DNA of 64,000 nt from a virus. The DNA is taken from positions 32,001 through 96,000 of IMG/VR virus record IMGVR_UViG_3300046779_002065, one strand, 5' to 3'. The notes beneath the pieces were generated by a model. It was not told where the DNA came from. It worked only from the letters and a program-made list of their open reading frames with translations, and did not search any database. Below, piece by piece: positions 24,254 through 55,585 of this stretch; the stretch's first letter is position 1; each line of letters starts with the position of its first letter. A program made the translations under genes and the position numbers.

Positions 24254-25801
24254 TTATATATAAATTGCTGTTAATCTATTAGTCCATGCAACATTGGTTG
24301 CAGTGGTTGTTGTTGTGCTTCCGTCTGAAGCAATGACTATTTTCTTTATCTTCCACACGGTGGCACTCTCTGCTGATCCTAGTGGAGCTGTCCCACAGTA
24401 AGAAGTACTTTCAACGTAATCGCTTCGTTTTTCTAGTTGAGTAACTGGTTTTGCACCATAAGTAAGTTTACCTGTAGTAGTATCGTAGTAAACCATTGAC
24501 GTAGTTTCTACGTTTTCTATACCTGTAAATCTGACTTCATTGTTAACTCTGATTGTACCATTTACGTCTAACTTGTACCCAGCGTCTAGAGTCGAGTTGA
24601 TTTGTATATTCCCTGTTGATCCTTGGATTCTTAAGTAGTATGTTTCCGAACCCGAACCCAAGTTATTACTGTTATAGTTTGACTTACTGTCACCTGCTAT
24701 AGCAAACCATCCTGAATTATCAAAGTTAAATTCAGCTCCAACAGTACCTGCTAACAATGCTGCAAACTTACCACTAGTGTCTAAGTTTCCTACTGCTATA
24801 TTCGGAGTTGCGCTTCCTGCACCGGCATTGAATTTAAACTGAGAAATGCTTCCGATATTTCCTGTTATTGCACCTACAGTAATTGGATTGGTAGTTGTGT
24901 TTCCAGCCGTTGTAACTGCTGCAAGTGTAGGTGTTGCAGTTGAAATAGTCCAGCTTCTATCAGCAGTTAAATCATAAGCTGTACCGTTAATGGTTAAAGT
25001 CCTGGACGCAGGTGTGTAACTAGTTGAGTCAACTGTACCGTTCGCTTTAAGAAATTGCGACGCCGTTCCACTGGTTACTAAAAAACTGGTTGCACGAATG
25101 GTTCCATTTACAGAGAACTTGTATCCTGTATCAGTAGAAATACCCAGCGTCATGTTTCCATTAGCAAACATCTTGAGCAACGGTGTATTAAAAATACCTG
25201 CACCCTGTCCATTGTTAATCGTAATTAATGGACGAGTTGCAATAACCCCATTCCCTTTAAAGAAGCTGATGTTCCAAAGACCTGCTGTGGTAGAAAGGTC
25301 CCCTGAGTCATAAAAGTTATATTGATGTCCAGTGTTATAGACACCATTGTATGCGCCGTAGTGATCTACCCGGTTAAATCCTTCTACTCCACGAAACAAG
25401 TGAGAGTTTGTCCAGTCTGTTGTCGCATGATGGATTCGAAACCATCGGTCTGAACCAGCTTCAATGAAATTGTTATCTGTTCCTCCTAGAGGGTTTACAG
25501 TAAAACTGGTACGAACAGCTATACCTGCTTCAAAGGTTTTTGATGCTGTAATCGATTGAACAGTACTAAGTGTTACATACCCTGCATCAGCGTGGTCTCC
25601 CCAGCTGTATGCTTCATTCCAGTTTGCAATTTGTGTTTGGGTAATGTCTGTTCCGCCAATCTCTTCCTCTGTACCATACCAGTCCAGTTTACGCAATTTT
25701 CCATTGCGCAGATAAAGCTTGTAATACCCTTCCTGCGGATTGTGGTCCGGTTTGTTATACAACAGGGGTAACTGAATTGGAACAATGAATTTGCCAGACA
25801 T
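24254..25801 (-). CDS. Tail fibre protein
   Basis: Shares NWxxAYSWGxHAxAGY, SQFLKAxG(S/T)xDS and DAGYKLDVNG modules with 18454-20520. Confidence 0.8.
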   Translation of the reverse strand: MSGKFIVPIQLPLLYNKPDHNPQEGYYKLYLRNGKLRKLDWYGTEEEIGGTDITQTQIANWNEAYSWGDHADAGYVTLSTVQSITASKTFEAGIAVRTSFTVNPLGGTDNNFIEAGSDRWFRIHHATTDWTNSHLFRGVEGFNRVDHYGAYNGVYNTGHQYNFYDSGDLSTTAGLWNISFFKGNGVIATRPLITINNGQGAGIFNTPLLKMFANGNMTLGISTDTGYKFSVNGTIRATSFLVTSGTASQFLKANGTVDSTSYTPASRTLTINGTAYDLTADRSWTISTATPTLAAVTTAGNTTTNPITVGAITGNIGSISQFKFNAGAGSATPNIAVGNLDTSGKFAALLAGTVGAEFNFDNSGWFAIAGDSKSNYNSNNLGSGSETYYLRIQGSTGNIQINSTLDAGYKLDVNGTIRVNNEVRFTGIENVETTSMVYYDTTTGKLTYGAKPVTQLEKRSDYVESTSYCGTAPLGSAESATVWKIKKIVIASDGSTTTTTATNVAWTNRLTAIYI

Positions 25802-25841
25802 GATAGAGTAGGAATATAGAGGTGTCGGTAGAAGACACCCC

Positions 25842-25854
25842 TATATATAATATA
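25842..25854 (-). promoter_or_regulatory. Putative late promoter motif (copy 3), followed by a leader hairpin at 25819-25840
   Basis: Exact TATATTATATATA, then ggggtgtc-ttctacc-gacacctc, before ATG 25801. Confidence 0.6.
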
Positions 25855-25875
25855 AGTTAAAGATTTCAGAAATCC

Positions 25876-31800: not shown

Positions 31801-32607
31801 AGTAGCAAGTGCCGGACGATCTACTTTCAAAAGTTCAACCACAAAGTGCATGACTTCCTCCATCCCGATGTCTGGAGTCACACGTCCTTCTACCAAATAC
31901 ACCGTGTTACCTTTAGCAAACGCGTTGATAGAGCGCAGGTTTTTACCCGGGTGATCACTTTGTTTTAGCTCACTGGGATGAATCCATTGTACATCAACAC
32001 CTTTTACATTGTCCAATAAACGGTCAACCACTTCATTTACCTGGCGTTTCTTCTCCTGGTATTCGCTGTCCTGGGTACTAAATCCTTTGACGTCTTTCAT
32101 GGAGTCATAGCGCACTTCGTTGAACTGAATCATGTAGCGCATTCGACCCATGTCGTCGTTGTAAGCGTGCAGGGATGCTTCGCCGGTAACAGCAACGTTG
32201 TTAATGTTGGCAACCAAACGCTGCGCCTTACGCATGTCATCGGTGTTGGACCCGTAGAACCTGATTTTAAAATCTCTCTCCAGGCGAGCTTTCTCTTCTT
32301 CGTACGTTACGGCGTCTGCACTCAGGTTGTAATTAATCCCTGACATGTCTTTCATTCCGGCAACATAGCCGACAACGGGTTCACCGTTCTCGTCCAGGTT
32401 AACCAGACTCTCCCCGTTTTCCCAGTCGCCGTGACGGTTTTTAAACTCCGGAGTGTACGCAATTGCCCACATCCGCAGTGCTTGTTCTTTGTCCCCAGCA
32501 AGTGCTGGAAGTTCCATGATGTCTTTGAACAGGATAGAGTCCTTGCTGTTTGGTGCAAGAACTCTTGAAATTTCTCCTGATTTGTTACGTATAATACTGC
32601 AAGCCAT
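25876..32607 (-). CDS. Giant virion/ejected protein (2243 aa) with a degenerate zincin-like domain and a PD-(D/E)XK nuclease domain
   Basis: MEEVMH zincin-like segment; GTFVHNMLE...GRIDFMAIDKKGRVTIYDLKT...YDAQLSVY nuclease motifs; adjacent to the RNAP as in crAss-like phages. Confidence 0.75.
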   Translation of the reverse strand: MACSIIRNKSGEISRVLAPNSKDSILFKDIMELPALAGDKEQALRMWAIAYTPEFKNRHGDWENGESLVNLDENGEPVVGYVAGMKDMSGINYNLSADAVTYEEEKARLERDFKIRFYGSNTDDMRKAQRLVANINNVAVTGEASLHAYNDDMGRMRYMIQFNEVRYDSMKDVKGFSTQDSEYQEKKRQVNEVVDRLLDNVKGVDVQWIHPSELKQSDHPGKNLRSINAFAKGNTVYLVEGRVTPDIGMEEVMHFVVELLKVDRPALATRLFKQAQVVAPALWAEIERTYTNEKGFTMGDRRSELITRVLQKEYAKEIENNAAREFDELRSILSKMFNWLKELLNKVFREKGYNVDVAVDFSEMPLDTTFAELAAILNTRNVLIEAYSIDNVLYNMEEPENADLDKELPVPGEEEKKDDSAWKQKILERQLERVDKQLEYLKLAERTSKPNASQRATLQKFRQQLLDYKQILINTPNKTRRVSRVIGQTDATGAENYANFGTFVHNMLEELQVRSLETGQAPIVLFEREDFNERYKETMDNPKTAFDFKGMTQEDVYKMTKEVIGFLGDVYAQGHILIPEMTMISKDPIRGAIVGRIDFMAIDKKGRVTIYDLKTARVNAGELPHNKLAKEYKKETFLPGVTPEFGMLKMRSKFMDYDAQLSVYERMMKQAGIEVNERIILSLIYANKNKNMRASNKDFEFASARVHRYSEFDYAYRTEYERDEEGNIISEKRVLRREFKRIREAAIASVYIEGETFDEREEATHEVVNLFELFQDTTLDEFIDLMVEGIDKQLSQLREELKKSEAYYSDPKVKEYYQNRSKQLYQIKEEMLKANDEDKLSLAKGMKLSAAIAALNLSAQQIEEEAARLDALPLTTEERLKRLSEIKTEAENLEEILGIIAEVGERNKLSSTEPVMQVLATSRAALSNAISKYRQQGERIMIEYIKESVPEEFVKQIYESRGQYIEGRIKGLEREITELENPEWKPAVWQARKRFTYTPQQIEQLRKEKLAEKQQELQKLLADQGKKSLTEQDIEDYVYSLMNNKDSRFYLGSNTSVTPIGFGLGDLISNSSNPELIVYAAFNKLRSLTNDAQNTAMNNFYEMEFDTHVKNFVSRKGGESAANAVLREKRTVTYYNEDGTTYTRDHYSFKNPVMQSYFDAYEGQRRLIADKRKLLNDLRRQRTADPTNQELNDQFAALDQEINSDVKKFNEWLQRFTEREFIDEYYDLSMSLPASVQAELDIIDEAISRIRSTKVGSEELLNETQLDQIHELELQRNKIYQEALKSDPDYQKKMERYRELKTFDENWGLYNKIRAEKIAAYGIDSEEFKRWEKLNKTRRPSDKFYKDVNRIYERIDAILGGQDPEMTALRAERSKIRRKYKMNGTFYSGNMDPQDIEAYDALEEKIEAIRKKAALEEGEDGLPLEVRKKLGVQYERLSKLQTQKQTESYTEELNKRVTELEKVANELREIESIYDYSGTSSEKALEERYINAQTNYYTLEEQFTAWYNKNHTNLYEPDTFRNGKVLDPAPKKIHFEQVPVEDLDDSYFEEVLHRKFRMSRPTEAAKNPRYQLTPEGYPVPKGLQLVNNRWEISGTNEFINPEFVKLTQNQTDYDFYNWLVMDNYIAKQDGTVGRKLAFLFPGVEMNKVDNIKEFGLIEGIKREYEETAQEVVLGKNKSQTDIASNEYGSADRMRVRFKHNFPLDAMLTTTNGITAVGMWMVEREINHEMGKADIAFSAIIDAMEGMRDHVTDTTKMNQLNKAIELVTFERDKFIYGKRMKGGDKDINTMKGLRLFMKAVSFGRLGFDFAAQTGNMLSGNVQTFLNAQKGDYTPSNLLYAKKKVYNILGSMISDYGKVSDVSFETKLVRFMNPNQKELSELVNLNTKSQLDRFLTQSMDFANLAYMLQDKGETEIALTTMVAIMDHHKYKVFDLDASGEKQYDTEGNVMYKMENGEPVLVNGFDIFTEDNTGKIVTRKDVDVTSQQVKMLRNKVYSQILKAQGNYADWTSTHISSTQFGVMMEYFKKYFVHMALRRFGKHQEDFEGMKFAAGWYRIMYDMFRQYGFKEGIKAMIPGNNKSEVNEYYRTGSLQAGRELLTGLVMMMLYGYLRGLAYSDDDDEVELNWMEMQIMRTFAKVISESRSMIPVPFVGNVNTYIDSFSNFTSVFREGKTMWKLVENSLSLMGYEIFGDSFEEAAFYQKRYGMYEAGDPKALKNFHDLIGYDNIIGIFEPEYKLKEQFKNK

Positions 32608-32615
32608 TTTTAGTG

Positions 32616-35600
32616 TTAGTTACATTTTGTTGATTCATCAGTCTTAGACTGAAGTACTTTATCTACCGAGTCAGTTTTGAAGAGCTGACTAAACTCATTA
32701 AATATTCCACGGTTCTTTGCTGCCTCATCTGCTGCATCGTTCATCTTGTGACCGCTGTGACCTTTAACCCACTCAAGTTTGACACTTCCGCCGTTTGCCT
32801 CGATCATCTCGATGCGCTCGATAGCTTTCTGTACGAGGTATTGGATGTATGGTTCTTTTGCTTTCCAAGGTTTTGGTTCACGCTGAAGAGATCCTTCACT
32901 GCGCTCCCAGAGAGCACCGTAGTTTACAGCACCTTTGTAGTCCTGGCGGATAACAATATGTTCGCTGCTGTTCTTAAATGAATCCAGGGTCATCACCAGA
33001 CCAAGCATCTCCATGGTAGGATTGGAGAACTTAGTTCCAGGAAAGAGAGCTTGAAACGACTTCATAGCTTTGCTTTCCTCTGTTCCGCTCATCTTGTACA
33101 TCTGACCGTTGAACTCAACAGCTGCTCCATATCCAAGTTTACCGGTCCCTTTAATGTCGCTTCCGTCTACAAAGATTTCCAGTGGAGTTGCTGGAGTAGA
33201 AAGTATTACAGGAGTAGACTGTTGAGGTTGAGTTGCAAGTTGATCCATTATTTTAGCATACTCTTCTTTTGGATTAACACCGCCTCTTGACAAAATGTGT
33301 TTCATTCCTTCTACTGATTGAAACCCATTTTCTTTAAGTTTATTGATAAACGGCAAATATTGTCTGTTTGTTAAATCTTCAGCAACAAATACAGCATACT
33401 GTAATCTGCCTTCAATTAAATCATTTACTCTATCATTGAAAGACTCAATTTGACTTTTTCTTAATACTTGTGAATTACTTATAAAAGTAAAAGAGGTTTT
33501 GTCTGCATACTCTTTTAATGTTGTAGAAGAATTAAATTGAGTGTTTAGTACAGCTTTACCTAAGAATGACAGATCTATTCCTGGATAGAGTTCACCCAAC
33601 GCTGCGCGATTCACCCGGTCTTCATACTGACCATAGTTTTCACCGACTTGTTTTGGACCCAACACAGCATGCTGACGTTCATGTTCCATAACAAAGGTTT
33701 CCCACTCTTCATACGATTTAAAAATATCTTCAGGGAATGCCGTTGCATAAGAATTATCACGTTGCTTCAGCGGGTTTGTCCAAGCTTTGTCGTAGTATTT
33801 CTCTCTTAACAAATTACGGTTAAGCACAATGGTGTTATCACCTCTTCTGAATTTAGCACCACCAGGTTCGTTGCTTCCTTCACGCTCAAGAGATTTTGAA
33901 TCAATCACCGTGATACCTTTATAAGTACCACCTGTTTCATCAATGCTGTTTATCTCAGGTTTAGCAGTACCTCTAGCATATTCATTCAGTTTGATTGCCT
34001 CATCTACTTCAAACGCAAGTGGATTGATATTAGAGTCACCCTGACGGCTTACTAACTTATACACTGCTTTGTTTCCGACAAATGGATTGGATGTGTTTAC
34101 ATCTGCTATATCCGCCTGGTCAGGATTTGCTTTGTTGTAGATCTGATCAAGTAACTTAGAACCTAATCCTTTGTCATCAACTTCACTGAGGATTAATAAA
34201 TCTCCATAGGTGTTGGTAACAAACAATGGGAAGCTGTATTTCTTTTCTCCAGTTTCCTTATTTGCTTTACGAGGGAAAATCTTGTAATGCATTGCAATAG
34301 CATCCTGAACCTGTTGTTCTTTAGCATCAGCAGGTTTCATGGAGATCATTACTTCATTGTTTTCATCAAGCAAGAACAGGTCATTGTTAGACGGATTTGT
34401 TTTACCTTCTTTGACACTTCTGTCCTGGTTTGTCTTATATTCACGTTTACGCTCTGTAAACGGATCATTGAGGTTCTTTGCTTCAGCAATAATCTTTTCA
34501 CCCATTCCAGGACGAATGCTTTTGATTGCTGCATGCATAGCTGCTTCACCATACTCCGTAAACTTGCCACGGTCATTGCTGTAGTTTAATACTTTCACAG
34601 CATTCTCATCTGGTACAGGATTGTAAATACTTACTGCTTTTTGAACAACGTCATCAATCAGTGTATCTACATCACCCTTTTCATCTAGAATACTTGCAAA
34701 CAAACTATTAAACTTGCTTTTGTATTCCGCTTGGTTCTGTGCTTTGGTTTTGCCAAACTCATCCAGTTCATTAAACGCTTTCTCAATCTTCTTGAGTTCA
34801 CCGCTGATTTCTCTAAAGTTATCAGGGTTTAGGAATGGACGCAAGCTGTAAGGTGCTGCTCCCATACCGTCTTTGATGATTGTATAATAAAACATCTGGT
34901 ACGCTGCCTCACGAACTGTCGGATCTGCATTGGTAAGAAGTTGGTCCAGTCCGTTCATGATCATGGTCTGACGATCTTTTGACAGCTTCACTTTACTGAT
35001 GCTGCGCATGATCTTTAACCCTTTGTCAGTCTTATGCGGAACAATAGATTTGATAAATGCGTTTTCAGGAAACTGAGACTTTAAACGGTTCATGATGTTA
35101 AACATGTCGTTGTTGTACCAGTAGTCTGCTTTAAGCATTTGCTGGAAACTCTTGTAACGTGCATACACTACAGGAGACTTCTCTTTGAACGAAGGATCCG
35201 CCAACGCTTTGTTGATGGTATTCTTCAGTGCATTGAGTGCTAAATAGTTCTTGATATGACCAGCTATCTTATCTGGAGTCGCTTCAAAGATGGCAGCATT
35301 TAACTGTCTGCTCAGTTCTTTGATGATAGGACTTCTCTCCAAGAACATCTTACCCAGTACTTCATCCATCAGTTCAACACTAGCTCCTAGTTTGTTATAC
35401 ACCGGACTTTCGCTAAAGATGTTGTTAAACCCTTTAAATGAACTTGCGTTTCTGTCTCTGCTGTAAGTTTCCATTAAACGATCTACGGCATTGAAGTCAG
35501 GTGCTAGAGATTTCTGTGCGTCGGTTAATGGAGTTAACTCAAAGCGGATTGCTTCAGCCTGTTCGTACTGCTTGATATATGCTGCAAGAATTACGACGTC

Positions 35601-38600
35601 TTTCATCTCTTGAGTAAGGATGCTTCCGTCATTAGCAACAATCTTTAATCCCAAAGAATCTACGGTAGGATTGTCACTGTTTGCTACGTTTGCATCGACA
35701 TTGTTTACATCGAATTCAAACGTATAGTCACTTAAATCAAATGATTCAGCAAATTCAATCAGACCGAAGTTAGTTGCCTTTTCCGTCTTTCCCTTCATCT
35801 CCAACAGACGTTTAGTCAACGCGTTGTTCATGTAGGTACCCAATGCCATACCATGCTTTCTACTACGACGAACAGAACCTTCTGTCTCCGCCATGTATTT
35901 ATCAATGGTGCTTTTTACACTAGGCATCAAATTAATGTAGATGCTCAGGTATGGATCAATACCCAATGATAACATCGTAGCTGTTACTCCCATGTTGTAC
36001 TGGTTAAGAGACAACACGGCAGGATAAGGTTTCTTAGCAGCATCGGCACTCATACCCAGAGAGTTTCCAATCAATGCGTGTGCACGCTCTGCGCTTGGAT
36101 CGGATTTCTCCGGAGTAAAATTCTCATAAACCTTACCGTTGATATTCCACAATGGTTCAGTTAATTCCAATCCATGTTTAACGGCAACACTCAATGCTTT
36201 ATTAAACGCGGCAAAGATTTCAATACCACGCTTTGCACTTTTGTTGGAGTCACGAACATTTGCTACAGACGTAATCGTTGCAAAGTTGCTTTGTCCAATC
36301 GTATCTTTTTCATCACGACCCAGTGTCTCTACAGCATTCTTATAGATATCTGCGTTGGAAGATTCTTTACTGTACAGATTATCAAAGACGTGTTTGTGTC
36401 CAAGAATCTGATTCATCGTTTTGGTAATCTCGTTCTGGATATTGGGAATTACCGGAGAACCATTTACTTTCTCGTAGCTAGCCAGGTCATCGGCAGTCAC
36501 CGGCATTCCAGAGTTCTGAAGCACGTTTACTACGGCAGCTACCTTCTCCAGGAGACGAAGCTGACGCTGTAGTTCAACACTTTGTTCATCCTGCTGGGTT
36601 TCCATGACCTGTGCAAGATCTTCCAGGGACGTAAATGTCCTACCCAGTGGTGCAATCTTCTTATCGGAAAGCAAATCACGGTAGCGGTTCTCCATAGATT
36701 TCTCTATGTCAGCCATGGATTGGTTGAAGAACTCCTGCACTTTAGGACCAAACATTGCAGAACTTTCTTTCAAGTTCTCAATCTGGTATTCCTTATCCTC
36801 GCGCATACGACGCAGCTCTTTGCTCACCAGTGGACCAAAGAACGGATCGTCCATCATGTAATGGAGATACTCAACGAATTTTGCAGTCTTGGTATCTAAC
36901 CCATAGCGGTTCTCATATTCAGAATAATCACCATAGATGTTTAGCTCACCCAATACGTTCTCGTACGTACCCATTACACGGGCGTACAATGCATCGATAT
37001 CTTTATCAGAACCAGAGAGGTAATGCACCTGTTCTGGAACAACAATCGTATTGATATAGGTCGCATCAATGTATCCTGCTACTTTCACGCGCACCATCGA
37101 ACGTTTATCCTCTGTAGGAATACGTGTTGCAAAGAACTCCTCCATGGATTTCTCAATGACTCTGAGTTTGCTTGGGTTGGTAGTAGTAGGACGAGGAATC
37201 AATACTTCCACGTAATAGTCTTCGTTACCATTTTCGTCAACTGTTTTTCTAAAAGATGGGTAACGGGTTTTGTAATTTTTGTATTTACCAGGGTTCTTAC
37301 GAATCAGGTAGTCTGGAACCGGCTGATCGTTTTCATCCACAATGATTTTATAACCAAAAGAAGAACCGTGGTAGAATTTGAAACCAGGTGCTTTTGGTTG
37401 GAACATGGTAGAGTTTGCCATGGAGAACACATAGTACTTCAACGCCTCGGTGATCCCGTTCAAGTTGGTACTGTGTACAGGCTGACCATCCACTACATCC
37501 CACATCTTGAGCATGTTTTGTGGTGCACCCTGTTTCTGCAACGACTCTTGGATTAGTTTAAAGAAGCTGGCAACATCGATTTCTCCGTCTTGCTTTACAA
37601 TACGCTCAAACTTCATCCGTGCGTTAAACGACATGTCGCTCAACAGCTTACGATACTTGATCACCAGGTCTTTTAAGTCTTGAGGAACATTTGGATCCTT
37701 TAAGTCTAAGTCTGTATCGATCAACAACTTAGGTTGAATAGAGTCCGTCACATCATGGTGATGCGCTTCCGTAGCTACCTGGTTATAAGCATAACTCATT
37801 GGAATGGTTGCCACGTTGTTTCCTAGATCCCAGTACCCGCTAGCATTTTCAAGTTCTTCTACGCTGGTTACGTACGGAATAACGGTACCACGCTTGGAAG
37901 CACTGTTGTCAGATACTTGTCCAAGACGGTGGAATTCCATATTGTTCAAAATGCTGTGCAGCATTTCTCTTCCGTTTATAGGAACAAACTCCTCGTGAAT
38001 CTTAGTGATTGTATCACGGTAAAGCTGCTCTATTGACTCATTGTTCTCGTTTACTTCTTTTCCCATGTCTAGCTGACCTTCATAGAGATCGGCTAGTTTG
38101 TATAACTCTGCTACGCGTAAACGCGCTGCTTTGGTATTTGAATCCTTGTAATAGCTTACAGTAAAACGGTTAATGTAATGCTCACTCATCTTGAGGTAAT
38201 GAATCGGATGAGCAGTTACCGTCTTCTGTGGATTTAACTGGATACCACGACCATTTAAATATTCAATGTCTTCCCAGGATACTTGTTTGTAGCGAAGGGA
38301 ACGAATGATGCTGTCGGCACGTGCGTCTTTTTTACCTTCTGCATTCAAGAAGTTCAAACGGTGATTGAGTCGTTGGTATACGTGACCATCCAGGATAGAA
38401 AACTTCTCTGCATTCTCTACATCGGATTGATTATGAGACTGCGCTTTGGTGATGTCATTTTTATCAAAGAACACCGGCATCTCTTTTTCTACATCCTTTG
38501 CACCTGCAATAGTGATAACAGCGTGTCGGTAGGTAATGTTACCTGCCTGGATCAGCATGCTTGCTGCCTCAGCGTTTTTACCAGCTGCCGCCTGAGATTT

Positions 38601-41600
38601 CAAACGCTTGTAGTAATCTACCGCATTTGCAAGACCCAGTGCTTTGTCACCGTCAAATAACTGATTAACCAACAATCGGTTAACCCAGTCATTGAAAAAG
38701 TAATCTTTTAAGAACTTATCAGTAGTAGTAATTGAGTTCGCTTTAGATACACCGTTCTCCTTGTAGTTTGTATCAAAGAATTCACTGCTGTATCCTTCTT
38801 TTGTCTTGTTGACGATTTTAGCTTTCTCCATGCTCTCCATGAAGAAATCAAACTCATCCTGAGCATACATATCTAACTGCTCAAATAAGCTTGACATGGC
38901 AGGCAATGCTAATGCTTCTTCAAAAGATTTACCTTCTTTAGCAGCAGCAATCAGCGTCTCACGCATCTGCGTTCTGGCAGCTACGTTTTCATCACTGATC
39001 GATGTGTCTGTTGGATCAATATCGTTTAAGAAGAAGCTGTCCAATTGATGGAACTGGTATGCTCTGAGTTTAGCACTTTCAGTATCCACCGTGTTGTCAG
39101 ACAAAAGAATACCGTTATAATCTTTGTAACGGAGTTTGTTTTCATGACGTGACGCCCACTGATTACCAATACGACTGTACTCTTGTTTAATCAGATCACT
39201 AAGACGTTTGCTGATTAAGCTGACTTTCTTGGAATTAACTTCCGTCTTTACAGCTGCATTATTGGTGGTGTACTGCTCATAGCGACCGGTTGTGTGAAAC
39301 AACGTTCCGGTAGCGTCATTCTGAGACGTAATACGTTTAAAGGTTTTTAATTCTTTACCTCCGCGTTTGTACGATTTACGATCTGTAAACAACGCAAGGT
39401 TGGAAAGATGAATACCAATCTTGTCAAGATCTGCGGCATCTGTGTTGATCGATCCGGTGTCGTCGATATTTTGAGAAAGACCACCGAGGTATCCAACTTT
39501 TAAATAATCCAGGAAGAGTTCTCCCAATCCATCCTCTGACAGATATGGGTTGTTATCAAACCAGCTTAGGAACTCAGGACCATATACCTCTAGGACAAAC
39601 TGACGAAGTCCCTTTGATTGTACGTCCTGCACAACCTGCATGTTTGGAGAGTACAGGGTAAAGCGGTATATCTTGTTGCCTGTAGTGTTCATGACCACCG
39701 GCTGACCAATCGTTGAGTCATAGCGGGTGAGGTACGTCATGGAAGGTAAGAAACTGGCAACGACGCTTTTACGGGTTTTGTTATCTTTGTTTTCAAACAA
39801 TGGAACAGACCCTGTGTAGCTAAACATGTACCACATAGCTTTCAGCATGCTGGTAGTCATGTATCCTTTTTCTTTAAAGATGTCGCTGTTTGCAAGCAAC
39901 ACTGCTCTGGCGTTGCTACCGTCAGGTAAACGATACCCGCTTTCGGTAATCAATGCCGCCAAAGAGAAATGGAAGAAGTGACGTGGAATACCAAGTCCTG
40001 CTTCTGCAGTGATTACATACAAGTCATCGGCAAACTTGTTCACCTTGGCGTCCGAGAACTCACCATTCTCCAGGTAAAACTCAGAGATGTTTTTACCATC
40101 GTCGCTTAACTCTCTGCTTAGAAGCGTTAAGTCATTCTGGATTTTCTGTTTGTCTTCTGCAGAAAGTGCTGTATAATTATTGTTGTATCCGTCAATGATA
40201 CGGTTGAGTGCCTGGAAGTTATCCTGGGACTGCACCATATCCACGGTGTTTAATTCACTCTTTATAGTGATACCACTAATTTCAAAACTTCTGCTGGTTT
40301 TAACATCCACACGGGTAATCTCACCACTTGCTACATAGAACACGCTGTGAAACTGGTTGAACATTGCTTCAGAACGGGTCGGTTTACCATCTACAATTCC
40401 GCAGGTGGTATCCAACATCTTCATCATCGCTTTAAGACTCTCTGCCAACTGATACACGGATTCATATTCCACCGGGTAACGATAGTTCATGCGACTACTC
40501 AAGCGACTCATATTAGACAAGTCTTCTTCCAATGTCTTAATCACTTGTCTGATCTGTGGAAGCAAGTCTTTCTTTCCAACATTTACCGTGATCTTTTTAA
40601 CAGTGTCAAACAACCTGTCGGCATCTACCGGGCGACGCATGGTAACGCCAAACATGTCTTCCTGTTCATAAACCAGGAACTGGAAAATCTTACGGAACTC
40701 ACGGTCTCCTTCCGAAGTACCTGTTTCCAGTAATCCAAGATCCGGATCCTTTGCACCTGATTCTTCTACATCATTGTTAGCTTTAGCAAACGCCTCTGCT
40801 GTATTCTCACCAGTAACCTGGTCTGAAGCAGCAGCCTGTTCTATCGTATCAATAACGTTCAGATTGTTGTACACCTCCAGGACCAACGCCTTCATCTGGC
40901 GGTAACTTTCTTCCGCACTTTTTGTGTAGGTTTCACCCGTCTCGTTTCCAATGTACTTGTTATCATAGTTTGGATCACCTGTAAGGTTTGCTACCGGGAA
41001 TTTCTCCCCAAGTTTCATAGAACCCAACACGTATCTAAAGTCACGGAGTTTGTTTTCATACGTCTCCCTGATCACACGTTCAGCACTTGGATTCTGACTG
41101 ATAAAGTTCTCAATGTTATAGTATGACACCATGGTCTTTGCAATCTGATCGTACAAATCAGACGTAGTAATTCCAGCAGATTTACTACGGAGCATCTCAT
41201 AGACCATCATATTGCGCAACTCCATCATCTCATCAGCGTTCATACTGTTAGGGAAACGAACAATTTTATCGTTTAGTAATCCCATGGTAGGAACTGTCTT
41301 GATCAATGCATACGCACCTTCGACACCAGTGTATTCTTTTACGGTTGCATTCTTGTAATATCCGTTATGAATACGGTCGAATGTTTTTTCGAGTTCATCC
41401 TTGTGCTTGGTAAAGAAGTCAAGCAACGACTGGATAAGGTTAAATAATTTCTGGTACCAGGTTTCTGCTTTGGTTTTCTTGGTCGCATACTTCTGGAATT
41501 TGTCTGCCATGCGTTCCTCCGCCATCAATTCAATGACTTCGGTGTTGCTCATGTGTGCAAGACCACGACGTTGCTTACGGAACTCCGCAATCTGAGATTC

Positions 41601-44600
41601 AGAGATGATTCCCATCTTCTCGTATTCACGACGTAATAAGTCAGCGCGCTCTTGTGGACTCAACAAATAACGGAACACAGCATGGAACGCTTCATGGTAA
41701 GCAGTTCCTGGGTTGGAAAGATTCTTACTGAGGTAAATCACTTTGTCCTTGATATACCCCAACACGTTTCCTTCAGCATCCAGGTGACGGACAATCTTCT
41801 CCAAATCGTCAATTGCAATCCCTGCAGGCAGACGATCACGGATGTAATCTACCTGGCGTTGAAATTCATCCTGCTCAAAGGCAGAACGCTCCAGAGCAGT
41901 ACCCAAAGAGAAGGTTCCATCAAACTCATCAATGTCATCCAATGGGGTGCTGCCTGCAGCAGGAGTATTGTTTGGTGCTACACTTGGTTTCTTTTTATCT
42001 TCAAATGAAACATTTTCCTCACCAAAGGACGGCAATACTTCATTTTTAGGCATTGTTGCTGCATCTTCCAATGCATGCGGGAAGTTGTAATGCAGGTTAA
42101 GACGTGTCTTGTAGTGTGCTTTTACAGTGTAATAAGTATCGAGGTTACTGGATTTTGTCGTACGGTCATTAAGTGCCACAGACGGTTGCAATCCTTGTTT
42201 GGATACAAAGAGTTGTTGCATGAACTCTTTCTTGTCACCCATCATACGTTCTGCCATCTCGCGGACGGTAGCATCTTCGTTATTGAGTAAGGCGTCTATT
42301 TTCTTTTCAAAGTTCTTTAACAGTTTCTTTTCCAATGAACTGTACGCCTTTTCAATTTGCTGTTCCAGCATTTGTACAGATTCTTTATCGCTGCCATACT
42401 TGAGTAATCCGTCCAATTGATCAAACATCTTCTCCATTCCTTCAGGGGTAGATGTATCAGCAGGAAGACCTTCTTTTTTAAAGAACTCTTCTACCGCGCT
42501 GGTGATGTCTTTAAGGACGCTGTCACCAACCAAGAAGCTTAACTTAGACGCATGCTCGTTGAAGAACTCTGCATCCGGGTGACTGTCCAATGCCGTAAAC
42601 TGAACACCCAAAAACGTTTTACCGTCCTTGGTCATGTTGACAAAGAAATCAGGTTGGATCTTACGGATAACGTCAAATCCTAATATGTTGTTATTAAAGT
42701 TTCTGTAGTACGGAGTGGTTGCTGTAGTCTTATCAAATCTGCTATAAAACCCAAATAGAGACAACAACGCTTTTGCTTTGGTAGTTGCATTTGACGGTGT
42801 CTTGTCCCTCATTAATGGAACGACTGCATAGCTTCCTGTCCTGGAAGGAACAATCATGGCGTGTTTGTATCCAGTGAGCTTGCTCAAGTTAGCAATCACT
42901 TTACCAGCTTTGGGAAGTTCAAACTTCTCTACGTATTCTTTCCATTTGTATTTAACACCTTCTACCAGGATAAATTCACCTGGTCCAAGTAATTCTACCG
43001 GCATGTAGGGTGCACCCTTTGTAGAAGACACTGCCTGGAAAAGAAGTGGTAAACGACGTTCCATCACATTACCCGGATCGTTCTCATTAATTACCGATAC
43101 GGTAATACCACTCTCATGAGCAGCCAGGAACTGGTCCAGACGCTTGTCTTTTAAACGGTCTTCAAAGTTTACTTTATCAGAAAAATCTACAGCATATACT
43201 GTATTGGTCAGTTCATAATATTTGTTGAAAAGCTCTGCAGGTATTTGGGTTTCTCCTTTGTCAAGCAATACTTGCACTTCTGCTTTGAACTCTTTAAATC
43301 GACGTGCACCATCGCGAAGCATTTGAAGATCTTCCAGTGATGTTGGACGTATGGTGGTCTCTGTTGTACCTACGCCTCCACGCACCTGGGTGAGCGTAGC
43401 AAATAAACTCAAGTCTTCCTCATTCTCCAGGTCAAGTAAACGAGTCGTGTTATCCGGATAAACAACCACGTAGTTATTAAAATCCATCAACGTTACAGTC
43501 TTACCGGTAGGAGAGACCATACGAATGGCAAACCCATCGGTCATACGACCACGCGTAAGAATGACCTTACCACTTTGTAATGCCATGATTTGTGCAGGCG
43601 TCTCCCGGGTCTCGATGGTACGGTTTGCTAAACTTGGGTATTGATCCGTAGCATTCTGGATCATTTGCATACGGGATGCGTTACGCTGTGCACCCGTGCT
43701 ATCAGCAATGATAGTAACCAGATTGGATGGAGAAACATTTGCACCGGAGAGTTCTTCCGTAAATGCGTCGACATCTTCCCCGATCATAACAAGTCCCGTG
43801 CGCAGTTCACCTGCGTCTACAAGAACAGTAGCACCGTCGTTTGCAATAAAACGCGTATTTGGTACATTAAGTTTTTTAGGTTTTGGATTGTTGTCAAGTA
43901 CATAAAGCTCTCCTGTAGACTGGAGGTTCTCATCAGCATAGAAATATTCTTCCCCTTCACGGATCAGATCCACCACGGTACCATCACTCAAGTACACCTC
44001 GTAGTGATTGGTTCCAAATCCTGGTAACGTACGCAAATCCACATAGCTTGCCATGTTGTTGCTATTACGAACCAGTGCAATGGCATCTTCTAACTTGCGT
44101 ACAAAATCGCGTCTTACTCTTTTGTCCTCAATAGAGTTGTTTACTTTGTCCAGTGCGTTTCGTAAAATCTTTTCGCTGTTCAGTTCATTGGTTTCATTTA
44201 AACCAGCGTCCAGTACAGCACGCTCCCTGACAATCGTATCGATAGCATTCTTAACCGCACTGTGACGTTTGATCACAGGGGATTCCAATGCTTCAGACAA
44301 TTGTGCAGCAAGTTCTTTAGTACGTTTATTTTGGGTGGTCTCTTCGCTGCTTGTAATACCTAGGTGTTCCTGGAGAAGGTTTAACGCCTGGGTAAAACGA
44401 TTTGCATCCAGACTGGTGTCATTTACCAGTGGATACACGGTCGCATCAATAAAACTATCCAGCTTGTTCAGTTCAAAGACTGTAGACTTCTTGGATAATT
44501 GTTTGTACAACTCGCTGTAAGCAATGATAATATTGCTCTTAGCTTCGTCGGTGAGATTAGTCAGCTTAACAATATCGCGAACTGAATTTTCGAGATTGCG

Positions 44601-44675
44601 ATATTTTTCGGGATTAGTACGAAGTGCTTGTTGCAGCGCGGTGCGCAGCACTTTAGAATCTATAGTGCAGGACAT
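32616..44675 (-). CDS. Virion RNA polymerase (crAss-like, single-chain two-barrel) with two zincin-like domains and a C-terminal RNase H
   Basis: TRIPTEDKRSM...GSDKDIDALY catalytic DxDxD at 36993-37007; YLKMSE; HEAFH at 41682-41696; HERQH at 33669-33683; RNase HI motifs at about 32700-33185. Confidence 0.85.
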   Translation of the reverse strand: MSCTIDSKVLRTALQQALRTNPEKYRNLENSVRDIVKLTNLTDEAKSNIIIAYSELYKQLSKKSTVFELNKLDSFIDATVYPLVNDTSLDANRFTQALNLLQEHLGITSSEETTQNKRTKELAAQLSEALESPVIKRHSAVKNAIDTIVRERAVLDAGLNETNELNSEKILRNALDKVNNSIEDKRVRRDFVRKLEDAIALVRNSNNMASYVDLRTLPGFGTNHYEVYLSDGTVVDLIREGEEYFYADENLQSTGELYVLDNNPKPKKLNVPNTRFIANDGATVLVDAGELRTGLVMIGEDVDAFTEELSGANVSPSNLVTIIADSTGAQRNASRMQMIQNATDQYPSLANRTIETRETPAQIMALQSGKVILTRGRMTDGFAIRMVSPTGKTVTLMDFNNYVVVYPDNTTRLLDLENEEDLSLFATLTQVRGGVGTTETTIRPTSLEDLQMLRDGARRFKEFKAEVQVLLDKGETQIPAELFNKYYELTNTVYAVDFSDKVNFEDRLKDKRLDQFLAAHESGITVSVINENDPGNVMERRLPLLFQAVSSTKGAPYMPVELLGPGEFILVEGVKYKWKEYVEKFELPKAGKVIANLSKLTGYKHAMIVPSRTGSYAVVPLMRDKTPSNATTKAKALLSLFGFYSRFDKTTATTPYYRNFNNNILGFDVIRKIQPDFFVNMTKDGKTFLGVQFTALDSHPDAEFFNEHASKLSFLVGDSVLKDITSAVEEFFKKEGLPADTSTPEGMEKMFDQLDGLLKYGSDKESVQMLEQQIEKAYSSLEKKLLKNFEKKIDALLNNEDATVREMAERMMGDKKEFMQQLFVSKQGLQPSVALNDRTTKSSNLDTYYTVKAHYKTRLNLHYNFPHALEDAATMPKNEVLPSFGEENVSFEDKKKPSVAPNNTPAAGSTPLDDIDEFDGTFSLGTALERSAFEQDEFQRQVDYIRDRLPAGIAIDDLEKIVRHLDAEGNVLGYIKDKVIYLSKNLSNPGTAYHEAFHAVFRYLLSPQERADLLRREYEKMGIISESQIAEFRKQRRGLAHMSNTEVIELMAEERMADKFQKYATKKTKAETWYQKLFNLIQSLLDFFTKHKDELEKTFDRIHNGYYKNATVKEYTGVEGAYALIKTVPTMGLLNDKIVRFPNSMNADEMMELRNMMVYEMLRSKSAGITTSDLYDQIAKTMVSYYNIENFISQNPSAERVIRETYENKLRDFRYVLGSMKLGEKFPVANLTGDPNYDNKYIGNETGETYTKSAEESYRQMKALVLEVYNNLNVIDTIEQAAASDQVTGENTAEAFAKANNDVEESGAKDPDLGLLETGTSEGDREFRKIFQFLVYEQEDMFGVTMRRPVDADRLFDTVKKITVNVGKKDLLPQIRQVIKTLEEDLSNMSRLSSRMNYRYPVEYESVYQLAESLKAMMKMLDTTCGIVDGKPTRSEAMFNQFHSVFYVASGEITRVDVKTSRSFEISGITIKSELNTVDMVQSQDNFQALNRIIDGYNNNYTALSAEDKQKIQNDLTLLSRELSDDGKNISEFYLENGEFSDAKVNKFADDLYVITAEAGLGIPRHFFHFSLAALITESGYRLPDGSNARAVLLANSDIFKEKGYMTTSMLKAMWYMFSYTGSVPLFENKDNKTRKSVVASFLPSMTYLTRYDSTIGQPVVMNTTGNKIYRFTLYSPNMQVVQDVQSKGLRQFVLEVYGPEFLSWFDNNPYLSEDGLGELFLDYLKVGYLGGLSQNIDDTGSINTDAADLDKIGIHLSNLALFTDRKSYKRGGKELKTFKRITSQNDATGTLFHTTGRYEQYTTNNAAVKTEVNSKKVSLISKRLSDLIKQEYSRIGNQWASRHENKLRYKDYNGILLSDNTVDTESAKLRAYQFHQLDSFFLNDIDPTDTSISDENVAARTQMRETLIAAAKEGKSFEEALALPAMSSLFEQLDMYAQDEFDFFMESMEKAKIVNKTKEGYSSEFFDTNYKENGVSKANSITTTDKFLKDYFFNDWVNRLLVNQLFDGDKALGLANAVDYYKRLKSQAAAGKNAEAASMLIQAGNITYRHAVITIAGAKDVEKEMPVFFDKNDITKAQSHNQSDVENAEKFSILDGHVYQRLNHRLNFLNAEGKKDARADSIIRSLRYKQVSWEDIEYLNGRGIQLNPQKTVTAHPIHYLKMSEHYINRFTVSYYKDSNTKAARLRVAELYKLADLYEGQLDMGKEVNENNESIEQLYRDTITKIHEEFVPINGREMLHSILNNMEFHRLGQVSDNSASKRGTVIPYVTSVEELENASGYWDLGNNVATIPMSYAYNQVATEAHHHDVTDSIQPKLLIDTDLDLKDPNVPQDLKDLVIKYRKLLSDMSFNARMKFERIVKQDGEIDVASFFKLIQESLQKQGAPQNMLKMWDVVDGQPVHSTNLNGITEALKYYVFSMANSTMFQPKAPGFKFYHGSSFGYKIIVDENDQPVPDYLIRKNPGKYKNYKTRYPSFRKTVDENGNEDYYVEVLIPRPTTTNPSKLRVIEKSMEEFFATRIPTEDKRSMVRVKVAGYIDATYINTIVVPEQVHYLSGSDKDIDALYARVMGTYENVLGELNIYGDYSEYENRYGLDTKTAKFVEYLHYMMDDPFFGPLVSKELRRMREDKEYQIENLKESSAMFGPKVQEFFNQSMADIEKSMENRYRDLLSDKKIAPLGRTFTSLEDLAQVMETQQDEQSVELQRQLRLLEKVAAVVNVLQNSGMPVTADDLASYEKVNGSPVIPNIQNEITKTMNQILGHKHVFDNLYSKESSNADIYKNAVETLGRDEKDTIGQSNFATITSVANVRDSNKSAKRGIEIFAAFNKALSVAVKHGLELTEPLWNINGKVYENFTPEKSDPSAERAHALIGNSLGMSADAAKKPYPAVLSLNQYNMGVTATMLSLGIDPYLSIYINLMPSVKSTIDKYMAETEGSVRRSRKHGMALGTYMNNALTKRLLEMKGKTEKATNFGLIEFAESFDLSDYTFEFDVNNVDANVANSDNPTVDSLGLKIVANDGSILTQEMKDVVILAAYIKQYEQAEAIRFELTPLTDAQKSLAPDFNAVDRLMETYSRDRNASSFKGFNNIFSESPVYNKLGASVELMDEVLGKMFLERSPIIKELSRQLNAAIFEATPDKIAGHIKNYLALNALKNTINKALADPSFKEKSPVVYARYKSFQQMLKADYWYNNDMFNIMNRLKSQFPENAFIKSIVPHKTDKGLKIMRSISKVKLSKDRQTMIMNGLDQLLTNADPTVREAAYQMFYYTIIKDGMGAAPYSLRPFLNPDNFREISGELKKIEKAFNELDEFGKTKAQNQAEYKSKFNSLFASILDEKGDVDTLIDDVVQKAVSIYNPVPDENAVKVLNYSNDRGKFTEYGEAAMHAAIKSIRPGMGEKIIAEAKNLNDPFTERKREYKTNQDRSVKEGKTNPSNNDLFLLDENNEVMISMKPADAKEQQVQDAIAMHYKIFPRKANKETGEKKYSFPLFVTNTYGDLLILSEVDDKGLGSKLLDQIYNKANPDQADIADVNTSNPFVGNKAVYKLVSRQGDSNINPLAFEVDEAIKLNEYARGTAKPEINSIDETGGTYKGITVIDSKSLEREGSNEPGGAKFRRGDNTIVLNRNLLREKYYDKAWTNPLKQRDNSYATAFPEDIFKSYEEWETFVMEHERQHAVLGPKQVGENYGQYEDRVNRAALGELYPGIDLSFLGKAVLNTQFNSSTTLKEYADKTSFTFISNSQVLRKSQIESFNDRVNDLIEGRLQYAVFVAEDLTNRQYLPFINKLKENGFQSVEGMKHILSRGGVNPKEEYAKIMDQLATQPQQSTPVILSTPATPLEIFVDGSDIKGTGKLGYGAAVEFNGQMYKMSGTEESKAMKSFQALFPGTKFSNPTMEMLGLVMTLDSFKNSSEHIVIRQDYKGAVNYGALWERSEGSLQREPKPWKAKEPYIQYLVQKAIERIEMIEANGGSVKLEWVKGHSGHKMNDAADEAAKNRGIFNEFSQLFKTDSVDKVLQSKTDESTKCN

Positions 44676-52316: not shown

Positions 52317-52356
52317 GGGTACACTTATAATTTACAAAAAAAACTTTAAAAATTTA

Positions 52357-52378
52357 TAAACTTCTAAAGTTTAAACTT
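52357..52378. repeat. 22-bp palindrome-containing element, copy A
   Basis: taaacttctaaagtttaaactt; 20/22 identical to 55586-55607. Confidence 0.6.
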
Positions 52379-55583: not shown

Positions 55584-55585
55584 AA

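Follow-up and report, generated by a model that had tools for sequence, protein, structure and literature searches.

Polymerase proteins related to the one described here are known as virion cargo. Those of phage crAss001 were found in the particle by mass spectrometry (PMC10172136), and the polymerase of phi14:2 is packaged as well (10.1101/2020.03.07.982082); the first-pass annotation had rightly said this of crAss-like virion RNA polymerases (RNAPs). The crAss-type enzymes compared were phi14:2 gp66, crAss001 gp47, gp49 and gp50, and crAssphage gp44. The N4-type virion RNAP (Schitoviridae gp50) is likewise a giant, injected, early polymerase; its fold, a T7-like single subunit, is unrelated to the crAss type. 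It has an RNA:DNA hybrid problem on single-stranded templates and depends on SSB-assisted template recycling, according to PMC4496689. Polyvalent proteins, as outlined by Iyer et al. 2017 (PMC5512222), unite unrelated enzymatic domains, zincin-like modules among them, in one polypeptide predicted to be injected. An RNase H fused to a nucleic-acid-handling module is found in Goslar Rhc (RNase H-clamp) of nucleus-forming jumbo phages. Rhc is reported to support replication and transcription, the latter probably via R-loop resolution; it differs from our case in that its fusion partner is a sliding-clamp-derived domain and it acts as a subunit of a DNA polymerase, and it is reported there neither as an RNA polymerase fusion nor as virion cargo. 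Retroviral reverse transcriptase is likewise a polymerase joined covalently to a type-1 RNase H. The retroviral polymerase makes DNA and its RNase H removes the template, whereas here product RNA would be removed.

The window analysed is a stretch of 64,000 nucleotides (positions 32,001 to 96,000 of IMG/VR virus record IMGVR_UViG_3300046779_002065). Its giant ORF, P0002, has the following features, listed from the N-terminus of the protein in window coordinates:

32616..44675, minus strand: giant ORF P0002, 4019 aa, predicted crAss-type virion RNA polymerase polyprotein with accessory modules
41682..41696, minus strand: first HExxH motif, HEAFH, aa 994-998, in the N-terminal third (motif only)
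36447..37535, minus strand: conserved RNAP catalytic core, aa 2381-2743 (homology to Crassvirales RNAP)
36993-37007, minus strand: DxDxD motif DKDID, aa 2557-2561, inside the conserved core
33561..33944, minus strand: HExxH module "zincin-like 2", aa 3578-3705 (motif, AlphaFold2 model)
33669-33683, minus strand: HERQH motif of that module, aa 3665-3669
33213..33560, minus strand: low-GC mobile module, aa 3706-3821, with a Pro/Thr/Ser/Gln-rich linker at its end
32691..33212, minus strand: RNase HI cassette, aa 3822-3995 (Pfam, PHROG, alignment, AlphaFold2 model)
32712-33182, minus strand: PF00075 match, aa 3832-3988 (Pfam)
33165-33167, minus strand: predicted catalytic D3837 (E. coli D10), by alignment to E. 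coli RNase HI
33009-33011, minus strand: predicted catalytic E3889 (E. coli E48), same alignment
32940-32942, minus strand: predicted catalytic D3912 (E. coli D70), same alignment
32757-32759, minus strand: predicted catalytic H3973 (E. coli H124), same alignment
32727-32729, minus strand: predicted catalytic D3983 (E. coli D134), same alignment
32619..32690, minus strand: conserved C-terminal tail, aa 3996-4019, with Cys4018, common to P0217 and P0218
32616-32618, minus strand: stop codon of the giant ORF

A reading-frame check found the ORF open throughout for 4019 codons' worth of protein, and re-reading its last 250 codons gave the end quoted in the first-pass annotation with an uninterrupted frame. 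Pfam and PHROG scans of the whole 4019-aa protein recognised no family except RNase H. Its polymerase identity was obtained by tblastn: with aa 1226-3225 as query, annotated RNAP catalytic subunits in 29 Crassvirales records are matched (E 3e-14 to 3e-5), and these matches span about aa 2218-2760 of the ORF, DKDID included. A phmmer search of the whole protein against PDB returned RNase HI chains and chance bromodomain rows only, with neither phi14:2 gp66 nor any other polymerase structure among them. Since there is no PDB polymerase match, a two-barrel fold of the polymerase part is predicted from homology to annotated Crassvirales genes, not from structure. With this qualification, the ORF carrying the RNase H is a crAss-type RNAP by sequence. 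An N4-type identity was ruled out: P0002 is not among the 8 matches to an N4-type profile built from relatives of P0052, and PHROG 2206, the N4 gp50 family, was not reported for it in the PHROG scan. Like the crAss-type enzymes, it has a DxDxD core and is a giant protein among large late genes beside tail genes. Unlike them, it reads DKDID instead of DFDxD, the Phe being replaced by Lys in P0002-P0005, and its C-terminus holds three further modules, one of them RNase HI. With a single RNAP-core protein as query, IMG/VR viral contigs yielded no confirmed relative. By analogy with crAss001 and phi14:2, this polymerase protein of a freshwater crAss-like phage is most likely carried in the particle; that it is packaged and injected is expected by homology only.

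The RNase H assignment was made by profile, alignment and structure. RNase_H (PF00075) matches the C-terminal part of the ORF with E 4.2e-12 and 46.9 bits, above the curated gathering cut-off of 25.8, and the whole protein with E 1.9e-10; PHROG 531 ("Rnase H") matches with E 5.9e-18, and E. coli RNase HI is the top PDB match of the domain (phmmer, E 2.7e-8). The five catalytic residues listed above had been assigned before, and the alignment to E. coli RNase HI bears them out. An AlphaFold2 model of aa 3822-4019, built from an input alignment of 39 sequences, reached a mean pLDDT of 93.2 and a pTM of 0.88. It is predicted to have the mixed five-stranded sheet and flanking helices of the RNase H fold, and it matches RNase HI structures both in Foldseek (E 9.5e-10 against E. 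coli RNase HI) and in VIA-align. VIA-align gave Z 15.1 with archaeal RNase HI 2ehg (rmsd 2.4 A, 132 residues), Z 14.2 with E. coli RNase HI (rmsd 3.0 A, 130 residues), Z 14.0 with human RNase H1 and Z 13.5-13.9 with HIV RT RNase H domains. Like the E. coli enzyme (the rnhA product), the domain has the DEDD carboxylates and the His at aligned positions and the same fold. It differs in being only 23-26% identical, in sitting within a 4019-aa protein rather than standing alone, in an extra helix after the third strand (model residues 48-56) and in a conserved signature of its own subfamily. A conserved Trp/Lys-rich K-x-W-x-x-K is aligned with the basic protrusion (handle) region of E. coli RNase HI.

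Residue conservation was assessed in 66 homologous domains from 79 giants, among which the median identity is about 48%. The equivalents of D10, E48 and D70 are present in 66/66, H124 in 65/66 and D134 in 64/66, and this retention of the active site across homologues indicates selection for catalysis. The GC content of the cassette (46.2%) is near that of the body (42.5%). In P0003-5, the RNase H is 72-83% identical to ours, compared with 59-63% for the body, and the median identity across 80 proteins is 48% for RNase H versus 20% for the RNAP core. The RNase H is thus better conserved than its carrier protein. Based on these results, aa 3822-3995 is a complete type-1 RNase H (RNase HI) that is predicted to be catalytically competent. 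The central earlier claim, an intact RNase HI fused in frame to a crAss-type RNAP, is thereby upheld (Pfam, tblastn, model Z 15.1). The description of the ORF end as RNase HI stands for aa 3822-3995 and had to be corrected for the last 24 aa (3996-4019), which form a conserved tail instead; that tail is also present in the RNase-H-less relatives P0217 and P0218, and its model confidence is low (AlphaFold2 pLDDT about 55).

Upstream of the RNase H lies the low-GC module, with a GC content of 30.7% and a GC3 of 17%, against 42.5% GC in the body (sd 2.3, minimum 37.1). The nearest relatives, P0003-5, lack it; 11 other giants without RNase H carry segments 62-71% identical to it, and two further giants match it at 44-45% identity. 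For aa 3706-3821, neither a Pfam match nor a usable ESM Atlas match was obtained. In the 34 residues preceding the RNase H, P, T, S and Q are enriched 1.5-1.9 fold and aromatics are depleted, a composition as expected of a flexible tether.

The adjacent HExxH module (aa 3578-3705) was modelled with a pLDDT of 81.9 and shows weak metallohydrolase-like matches in VIA-align (YbeY-type, Z 7.3 and 7.0; PprI, 6.0; minigluzincins, about 5). Foldseek returned no match at E<=0.001, and ESM Atlas leads for aa 3556-3705 were all below 0.9, to Peptidase_M85- and M78-type clusters; no Pfam family was found in aa 3493-3830 or aa 693-1392 at useful E-values. A protease label was therefore not adopted for this module, given the absence of a Foldseek match and a top Z of 7.3. 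The N-terminal HExxH motif recalls the zincin protease that is separate in phi14:2 (gp65) and fused in some other phages; crAssphage gp45 is annotated as "RNAP associated protein fused to zincin protease". The HEAFH region may correspond to this protease.

In this lineage, by sequence, the RNase H cassette occupies a slot flanked by the conserved body and the Cys-bearing C-terminal tail, and RNase HI would be one of several interchangeable accessory cassettes there. The window ORF combines an RNAP core, RNase HI and two HExxH modules, and so has the multiple activities of a polyvalent protein. Pfam detected no PolyVal-named or LPD domain in the whole window protein; PolyVal/LPD domains are present in P0046 and P0051, relatives sharing the RNase H cassette.

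The first-pass annotation had implied that the fusion is singular, which proved wrong. RNase H of this subfamily was found on 97 of the 196 giant proteins gathered, including 80 with a crAss-type core and 8 metagenomic N4-type virion RNAPs; the remaining 9 match neither type, and two of these (P0070, P0044) have weak core matches with a DFDxD motif. Two N4-type giants were tested directly against PHROG 2206 (P0052, E 0; P0032, E 1.6e-162), and P0052 also matches the solved N4-type vRNAP (E 3e-37). The N4-type RNase H copies are 57-62% identical to that of the window in the six, out of eight, that were compared; they lie in the N-terminal or middle part of their proteins, and none of the 8 has the terminal Cys. 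Among the 80 crAss-type giants, the RNase H precedes the core in 9 and follows it in 71. Judged by sequence, the same cassette is thus shown to be present on two unrelated virion polymerases.

Its distribution is patchy. Only 7 of the 91 nearest polymerase relatives carry the RNase H (84/91 lack it), and none of five GenBank gut Crassvirales genomes searched encodes any RNase HI. A search of 1.84 billion representative proteins gave 42 matches at E<=1e-30, with 27 of them at least 2000 aa long. Some short matches, P0100 and P0099 for example, have the same sequence as domains of giant proteins in the tree, which makes them fragments. A tblastn search of 50,697 GenBank phage records with the C-terminal 249 aa found no close copy of the cassette in a giant gene and no named phage carrying it at E<=1e-5; each of the 11 matches is a stand-alone RNase HI gene of an SSU5-like phage (25-27% identity). 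In an RNase H tree (FastTree, SH-like supports, midpoint root; P0086 and matches <120 residues left out), N4-type copies fall at at least three places among crAss-type copies. Pairwise identities of RNase H and RNAP core are uncorrelated over the 80 proteins (Spearman about 0), in a comparison whose core alignment is near saturation (median 20%) and which includes the near-duplicate P0086, a cluster-mate of P0005; this lends weak support to module exchange. Relatives with the same RNase H also carry ART-PolyVal, LPD23, Kinase-PolyVal, NADAR and DUF7831 domains (Pfam), of which ART-PolyVal, Kinase-PolyVal and LPD23 are families that go back to the work of Iyer et al. 2017, and NADAR, ART-PolyVal, Kinase-PolyVal and lysozyme cassettes ride on both polymerase types. 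RNase H on an injected polymerase is, accordingly, an optional, swappable add-on common to many uncultured phages.

As to function, we tentatively prefer the possibility, held at somewhat below even chances, that the RNase H, injected along with the polymerase, clears RNA:DNA hybrids from the incoming phage DNA, where such polymerases leave them. On the model of crAss001 and phi14:2, the polymerase protein would travel in the capsid and enter the cell before the DNA, with the RNase H held on its Pro/Thr/Ser-rich flexible linker or freed by the neighbouring metalloprotease-like module. Hybrids would arise where the virion polymerase, working on a single-stranded or unwound template, fails to peel its transcript off the incoming DNA; the RNase H would degrade their RNA strand, which would free the template for more early transcription and for replication. 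The cassette would be an optional aid, outside the polymerase mechanism. Hybrid removal is favoured by the active site kept by the homologues, by the stronger conservation of the domain than of its carrier, by the specialisation of the cassette to injected polymerases and by the tether-like residues before the domain. A phage RNase H supporting transcription, probably by resolving R-loops, has a reported precedent in Goslar Rhc. Against hybrid removal, it has to be said that we infer packaging, injection and activity alike. Since the cassette is found on 7/91 relatives and in 0/5 gut Crassvirales, hybrid removal can be no general need of such polymerases. The polymerase may even be a mere delivery vehicle, because cassettes unrelated to hybrids ride on the same polymerase types, and the co-occurrence of RNase H and polymerase may say nothing about their coupling. 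The 9 RNase-H-bearing giants without a demonstrated polymerase identity also count against this reading. Finally, the RNase H would help only on failed, non-displaced RNA, because an attack on nascent transcripts would destroy messages.

A broader form of hybrid removal, which we consider doubtful, is that RNase HI cassettes were recruited repeatedly by two-barrel crAss-type and T7-like N4-type injected polymerases, since their transcripts would inherently stick to unwound or single-stranded template. If so, the cassette would be a phage-borne stand-in for the transcript displacement by host SSB known from N4, and hybrid removal would be a general, previously unrecognised early-transcription step of injected polymerases.

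It is unlikely, in our estimation, that the polymerase serves as the vehicle of an injected counter-defence effector, whose RNase H would attack hybrid-containing host immune intermediates: guide RNA on phage DNA (RNA-guided Argonautes, CRISPR R-loops) or the template-product hybrids of defence reverse transcriptases. The polyvalent-protein domains beside the same RNase H in relatives would suit such a role, as would the HExxH module upstream of the RNase H and the arms-race pattern of a patchy, mobile cassette (7/91 relatives; 9 before and 71 after the core; N4-type copies interleaved). However, the RNase H is unusually well conserved in comparison with many fast-evolving anti-defence proteins. 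Hybrids inside Cas effectors are, moreover, largely shielded. The idea of retrons as a target is weakened by a report, according to its title, that retron defence requires host RNase H1 instead of being destroyed by it. Multidomain proteins that are injected to counter restriction or CRISPR, and that zincin-like peptidases process, are described in PMC5512222, but the term "RNase H" has 0 occurrences in the main text of that paper.

An early-delivered replication enzyme, cutting transcripts into origin primers (ColE1- or mitochondria-like) or removing RNA primers, also strikes us as improbable. The RNase H is the sole PF00075 match in the complete 128,275-bp genome, in which no 5'-3' exonuclease or FEN (PF02739) was detected, and the phage has its own primase, DnaB-like helicase and DNA polymerase (PHROG matches), so that RNA primers are made. 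Goslar Rhc is an RNase H subunit of a phage replicase, and the N4 review lists DNA replication among the processes implicating N4 transcription machineries. On the other hand, the gene belongs to the late structural block, where it neighbours tail genes, and is outside the replication module (61-12976). Because 84 of the 91 nearest polymerase relatives lack the cassette and all five gut Crassvirales genomes lack RNase HI, replication in this group does not depend on an RNase HI from the phage. The host's RNase H or Pol I could do the work instead, and a few injected copies would seem a poor supply for Okazaki processing. R-loop clearing, primer processing and attack on defence hybrids, the roles considered from the outset, all stay candidate roles.

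That the RNase H is functionless here, either as a decaying passenger domain or through a chimeric assembly with the polymerase gene, is scarcely credible and already largely refuted, because P0003 (ENA), P0004 (Logan and ENA) and P0005 (JGI), three separate assemblies, keep body and RNase H colinear in a single ORF, and the active site is whole here and in 64-66 of 66 homologues. The sequencing-run comparison was made of assembled contigs. In it, the sole contig over the whole stretch, X1, belongs to a run that is possibly the record's own source; X4 and X6 cover short parts only, and in X3, an independent strain, nothing is listed over 33186-33700. The X3 gap coincides with the low-GC module, and because relatives lack or replace this module, the gap reflects strain variation rather than misjoining. 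The fusion is no assembly artefact.

An RNase H on a crAss-type or N4-type virion polymerase was not described in the full-text literature searched, to which supplementary domain tables, Yutin et al. 2018 (Nat Microbiol) and the printed Drobysheva 2021 did not belong. The term "RNase H" has 0 occurrences in Yutin 2021, the Crassvirales review, the crAss001 atlas, the main text of Iyer 2017 and the N4 structure paper, and texts with both "crAss-like" and "RNase H" use the enzyme as a reagent only. The first-pass annotation knew of no described RNAP-RNase H fusion; this holds for the literature searched, but in sequence data the fusion is common. Within that literature, neither the combination nor its convergence on two polymerase types seems to have been described. 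Its component enzymes are known, as is the concept of polyvalent proteins, and we regard the scientific payoff as moderate.

The RNase H domain is small enough for expression and assay and offers a direct experimental handle, and the slot layout of body, swappable modules and Cys tail would provide a rule for finding injected effectors in uncultured Bacteroidota phages. In crAss-like and N4-like phages, infection is started by the virion RNAPs, ahead of all phage gene expression, and how they handle unusual templates is only partly understood. A conserved, active-looking RNase H carried by both kinds of polymerase suggests that RNA:DNA hybrids repeatedly pose a problem, or offer a target, within the first minutes of an infection.

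The window lies within a complete virus record of 128,275 bp with direct terminal repeats (C1:32001-96000), found in runs labelled as freshwater metagenomes. On its minus strand, one unbroken ORF (44675 to 32616) codes for a giant protein of 4019 aa, P0002. The last 250 codons read as quoted in the first-pass annotation, and the C-terminal RNase HI domain reported there was confirmed in every particular. The Pfam profile RNase_H (PF00075), which had been proposed as a check together with structure prediction, matches aa 3832-3988 with an E-value of 4.2e-12 (46.9 bits, cut-off 25.8), and a PHROG scan of P0002 gave a match with PHROG 531 'Rnase H' (E 5.9e-18). E. coli RNase HI was the top match of a phmmer search in PDB, and this alignment pairs D3837, E3889, D3912, H3973 and D3983 with D10, E48, D70, H124 and D134, bearing out the five catalytic assignments made before. 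An AlphaFold2 model of aa 3822-4019 (alignment of 39 rows, pLDDT 93.2) adopts an RNase H fold and superimposes on 2ehg with a Z-score of 15.1 (rmsd 2.4 Å, 132 residues), on E. coli RNase HI with 14.2 and on human RNase H1 with 14.0; Foldseek gave an E-value of 9.5e-10 with E. coli RNase HI.

Misassembly had been raised as a possible source of the fusion, which is, however, not an artefact. The closest relatives with RNase H, P0003 (ENA), P0004 (Logan and ENA) and P0005 (JGI), stem from separate assemblies, are colinear with P0002 over aa 1-3705 and 3817-4019, and each hold body and RNase H in a single ORF. An 81-kb contig (X1), possibly the source of the record itself, covers 31800-36000 without any difference. 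For a related strain from another study (X3, 95-99% identity), coverage extends over 31802-33185 and resumes over 33701-36000. The break falls precisely on 33185, where RNase H has its N-terminal edge and a low-GC module begins or ends, and the stretch without X3 coverage is also absent or replaced in relatives.

The closest relatives without RNase H, P0217 (3740 aa) and P0218 (3634 aa), are colinear with P0002 to about aa 3577 and end in a tail of approximately 25 residues with a near-terminal Cys, which is common to P0002 and P0003-P0005. As they share body and tail with P0002, the C-terminal region is, judged by sequence comparison, a slot for variable modules, bounded on one side by the body and on the other by the tail, both of them conserved. 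In P0002, it holds three modules:

33561-33944, minus strand: HExxH module (aa 3578-3705, HERQH at aa 3665), common to P0003-P0005 and, more distantly, to five other proteins
33213-33560, minus strand: 116-aa module (aa 3706-3821), absent from P0003-P0005
aa 3822-3995, minus strand: RNase H, the third module in the slot

The AlphaFold2 model of this HExxH module, the second in P0002 (pLDDT 81.9), has weak but consistent structural neighbours among metal-dependent hydrolases, namely YbeY-type proteins (Z 7.0-7.3), PprI/IrrE (Z 6.0), and minigluzincins and Wss1 (Z 4-5); it may be a peptidase or a nuclease. The 116-aa module is apparently mobile and a recent acquisition; its GC content is 30.7% (GC3 17%) compared to 42.5% (sd 2.3) in the body, and segments 62-71% identical to it occur in 11 other giants without RNase H, with 44-45% identity in two more. 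RNase H has a host-like GC content of 46.2% and is common to the whole small clade, and is therefore older in the P0002 lineage. In the 34 residues N-terminal to it, P, T, S and Q are enriched 1.5-1.9 fold and aromatics are scarce, and a short Ser-Thr-Pro word stands just ahead of its first strand. Such a composition suggests a flexible tether more than a cleavage site under conservation.

The singularity of the fusion that the first-pass annotation implied did not hold. A word-seeded search with aa 3760-4019, limited to lengths of 2210-7034 aa, yielded 79 proteins, the query among them. RNase H was present in 66, and 56 of these also had the crAss-type core. When the domain was searched against 1.84 billion representative proteins, 210 matches had E≤1e-3; the limit of 1e-10 was reached by 90 and that of 1e-30 by 42. 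Of the last 42, 27 are at least 2000 aa long, and several short matches are fragments of giants, since they are identical or near-identical to giant-protein domains. Ordinary stand-alone RNases HI were found only lower in the list. Among 196 pooled proteins of at least 1500 aa, a set biased by the queries used and including one near-duplicate (P0086), RNase H occurs in 97, the crAss-type core in 174 and both in 80. In these 80 giants, RNase H lies on the C-terminal side of the core in 71 and on the N-terminal side in nine; it is located at most 100 aa from the C-terminus in 47. Homologues with the same fusion, which had been suggested as a check, were thus found, though in the converse search from the polymerase core only 7/91 nearest giants had RNase H (precomputed Pfam and our own profile). 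PF00075 had no match in any of five GenBank genomes of gut Crassvirales.

The crAss-type core is absent from 17 of the 97 giants with RNase H. One of these, P0052, matches PHROG 2206 'virion RNA polymerase' (N4 type) over profile positions 50-3402 of 3406 (E 0) and solved N4-type virion RNA polymerase chains with E 3e-37; P0032 matches PHROG 2206 with E 1.6e-162. A profile built from relatives of P0052 collects eight N4-type giants with RNase H, and the remaining nine of the 17 were assigned to neither type. In six N4-type giants, RNase H is 57-62% identical to the domain of P0002. In a FastTree phylogeny of 191 RNase H domains (SH-like supports, midpoint root), a giant-protein group of 110 rows (71 crAss-type, eight N4-type, seven of neither type, 24 short) is separate from a second group of 81 rows, most of them stand-alone, and the N4-type label requires at least three changes even on well-supported branches. 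On this comparative evidence, the recurrence of the module on two unrelated kinds of presumably injected polymerase holds. The metagenomic proteins P0032-P0036, P0052, P0055, P0108 and P0138 (3715-5178 aa) are N4-type virion RNA polymerases with the same cassette. Some RNase-H-bearing polymerases of this type also have a NADAR or tail-lysozyme domain; N4-type polymerases are therefore polyvalent carriers as well.

Besides RNase H, Pfam and PHROGs recognise no family in the 4019 aa of P0002. However, a tblastn search of GenBank phages with aa 1226-3225 matched 29 Crassvirales records (best E 3e-14), in genes annotated as RNAP catalytic subunit and over about aa 2218-2760. Inside this core stretch lies DKDID (aa 2557), a variant of DFDxD, which is given in a published abstract as the catalytic motif of crAss-type polymerases; a profile from the P0002 core places the motif at the equivalent position in relatives. 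In DKDID (36993-37007, minus strand), Lys replaces the usual Phe/Tyr, as also in P0003-P0005; DFDxD or DYDxD is found in almost every other giant. The gene is part of an extended block on the minus strand in which the genes are very large (2243, 4019, 1634, 905, 1068, 655, 1038 and 1802 aa) and which lies immediately upstream of genes for tail and tail-fibre proteins. No PHROG family was matched at E≤0.001 by seven large late proteins (515, 2243, 1634, 905, 1068, 655 and 1038 aa; 24254-32607 and 44695-60744, minus strand). In crAss001, three RNAP-associated giants are reported as virion cargo by mass spectrometry (PMC10172136), and the phi14:2 preprint places gp66 and two neighbours in virions. 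According to the same preprint, gp66 and its neighbours are fused as one polyprotein in some phages, and one bears a zincin-like protease; HEAFH at aa 994 of P0002, N-terminal to the polymerase core, fits this fused form. By analogy, we infer that P0002 is packaged and injected.

P0002 has only three Cys, at residues 3, 1425 and 4018, two of them terminal:

32622-32624, minus strand: Cys4018
44667-44669, minus strand: Cys3

Among the crAss-type polymerase giants of the related proteins P0002-P0300, 167/173 have a Cys in the last ten residues and 108/173 in the first ten, where a Cys frequency of 0.084% would by chance give about 0.8%. The C-terminal Cys is independent of RNase H (76/79 with, 91/94 without) and was found in 0/8 N4-type giants.

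The crAss-type virion RNA polymerase, RNase HI and the polyvalent-protein principle are known. In the full texts searched, virion RNA polymerases that bear an RNase H cassette, the occurrence of this cassette on polymerases of both types, and the arrangement of body, slot and tail all appear to be undescribed, although an earlier mention elsewhere may exist. Some databases (JGI names) automatically label such giants 'ribonuclease HI'.

Across 66 homologues, the equivalents of D10, E48 and D70 are retained in all, H124 in 65 and D134 in 64. RNase H is 72-83% identical between P0002 and P0003-P0005, compared to 59-63% for the carrier body, and median identity over 80 proteins is 48% for RNase H and 20% for the RNAP core. 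The best reading, which we put forward tentatively, is that the cassette clears non-displaced transcripts off the incoming phage genome. It is based on reports that template recycling in N4 is carried out by host SSB, which binds the transcript as it emerges, whereas the virion polymerase has no counterpart of the RNA-separating element of T7 RNAP (PMC4496689), that single-stranded or denatured DNA is also the preferred template of phi14:2 gp66 (preprint), and that a phage RNase H, the RNase H-clamp Rhc of jumbo phage Goslar, supports transcription in a way that points to the resolution of R-loops (abstract). What speaks most against it is that NADAR, ART-PolyVal, Kinase-PolyVal and lysozyme cassettes, which are unlinked to hybrids, are found on these polymerases too; the polymerase may be no more than the vehicle at hand. 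This point favours the alternative of a counter-defence effector, in line with the polyvalent-protein concept of Iyer et al. (abstract), an alternative that we consider rather unlikely. A role in replication is rather unlikely as well: the domain is the sole RNase HI (PF00075) in the complete genome, where a primase is present and no 5'-3' exonuclease domain or FEN is detectable anywhere in the 128,275 bp, but the cassette is missing from most relatives (84/91 nearest giants, 5/5 gut Crassvirales genomes) and its gene stands in the late block instead of the replication module:

61-12976, plus strand: replication module (helicases, primase, Sak4-like protein, exonuclease, DNA polymerase, dNMP kinase)
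9493-11475, plus strand: phage DNA polymerase (PHROG 1252, E 1.8e-130), missed by the Pfam profiles DNA_pol_A and DNA_pol_B in a genome-wide six-frame search

The comparisons establish RNase HI as an optional module, with an active site that is intact and selected by the measure of its conservation, carried almost exclusively by giant polymerases of the virion type, whose two folds are unrelated. It presumably enters the cell together with the polymerase.
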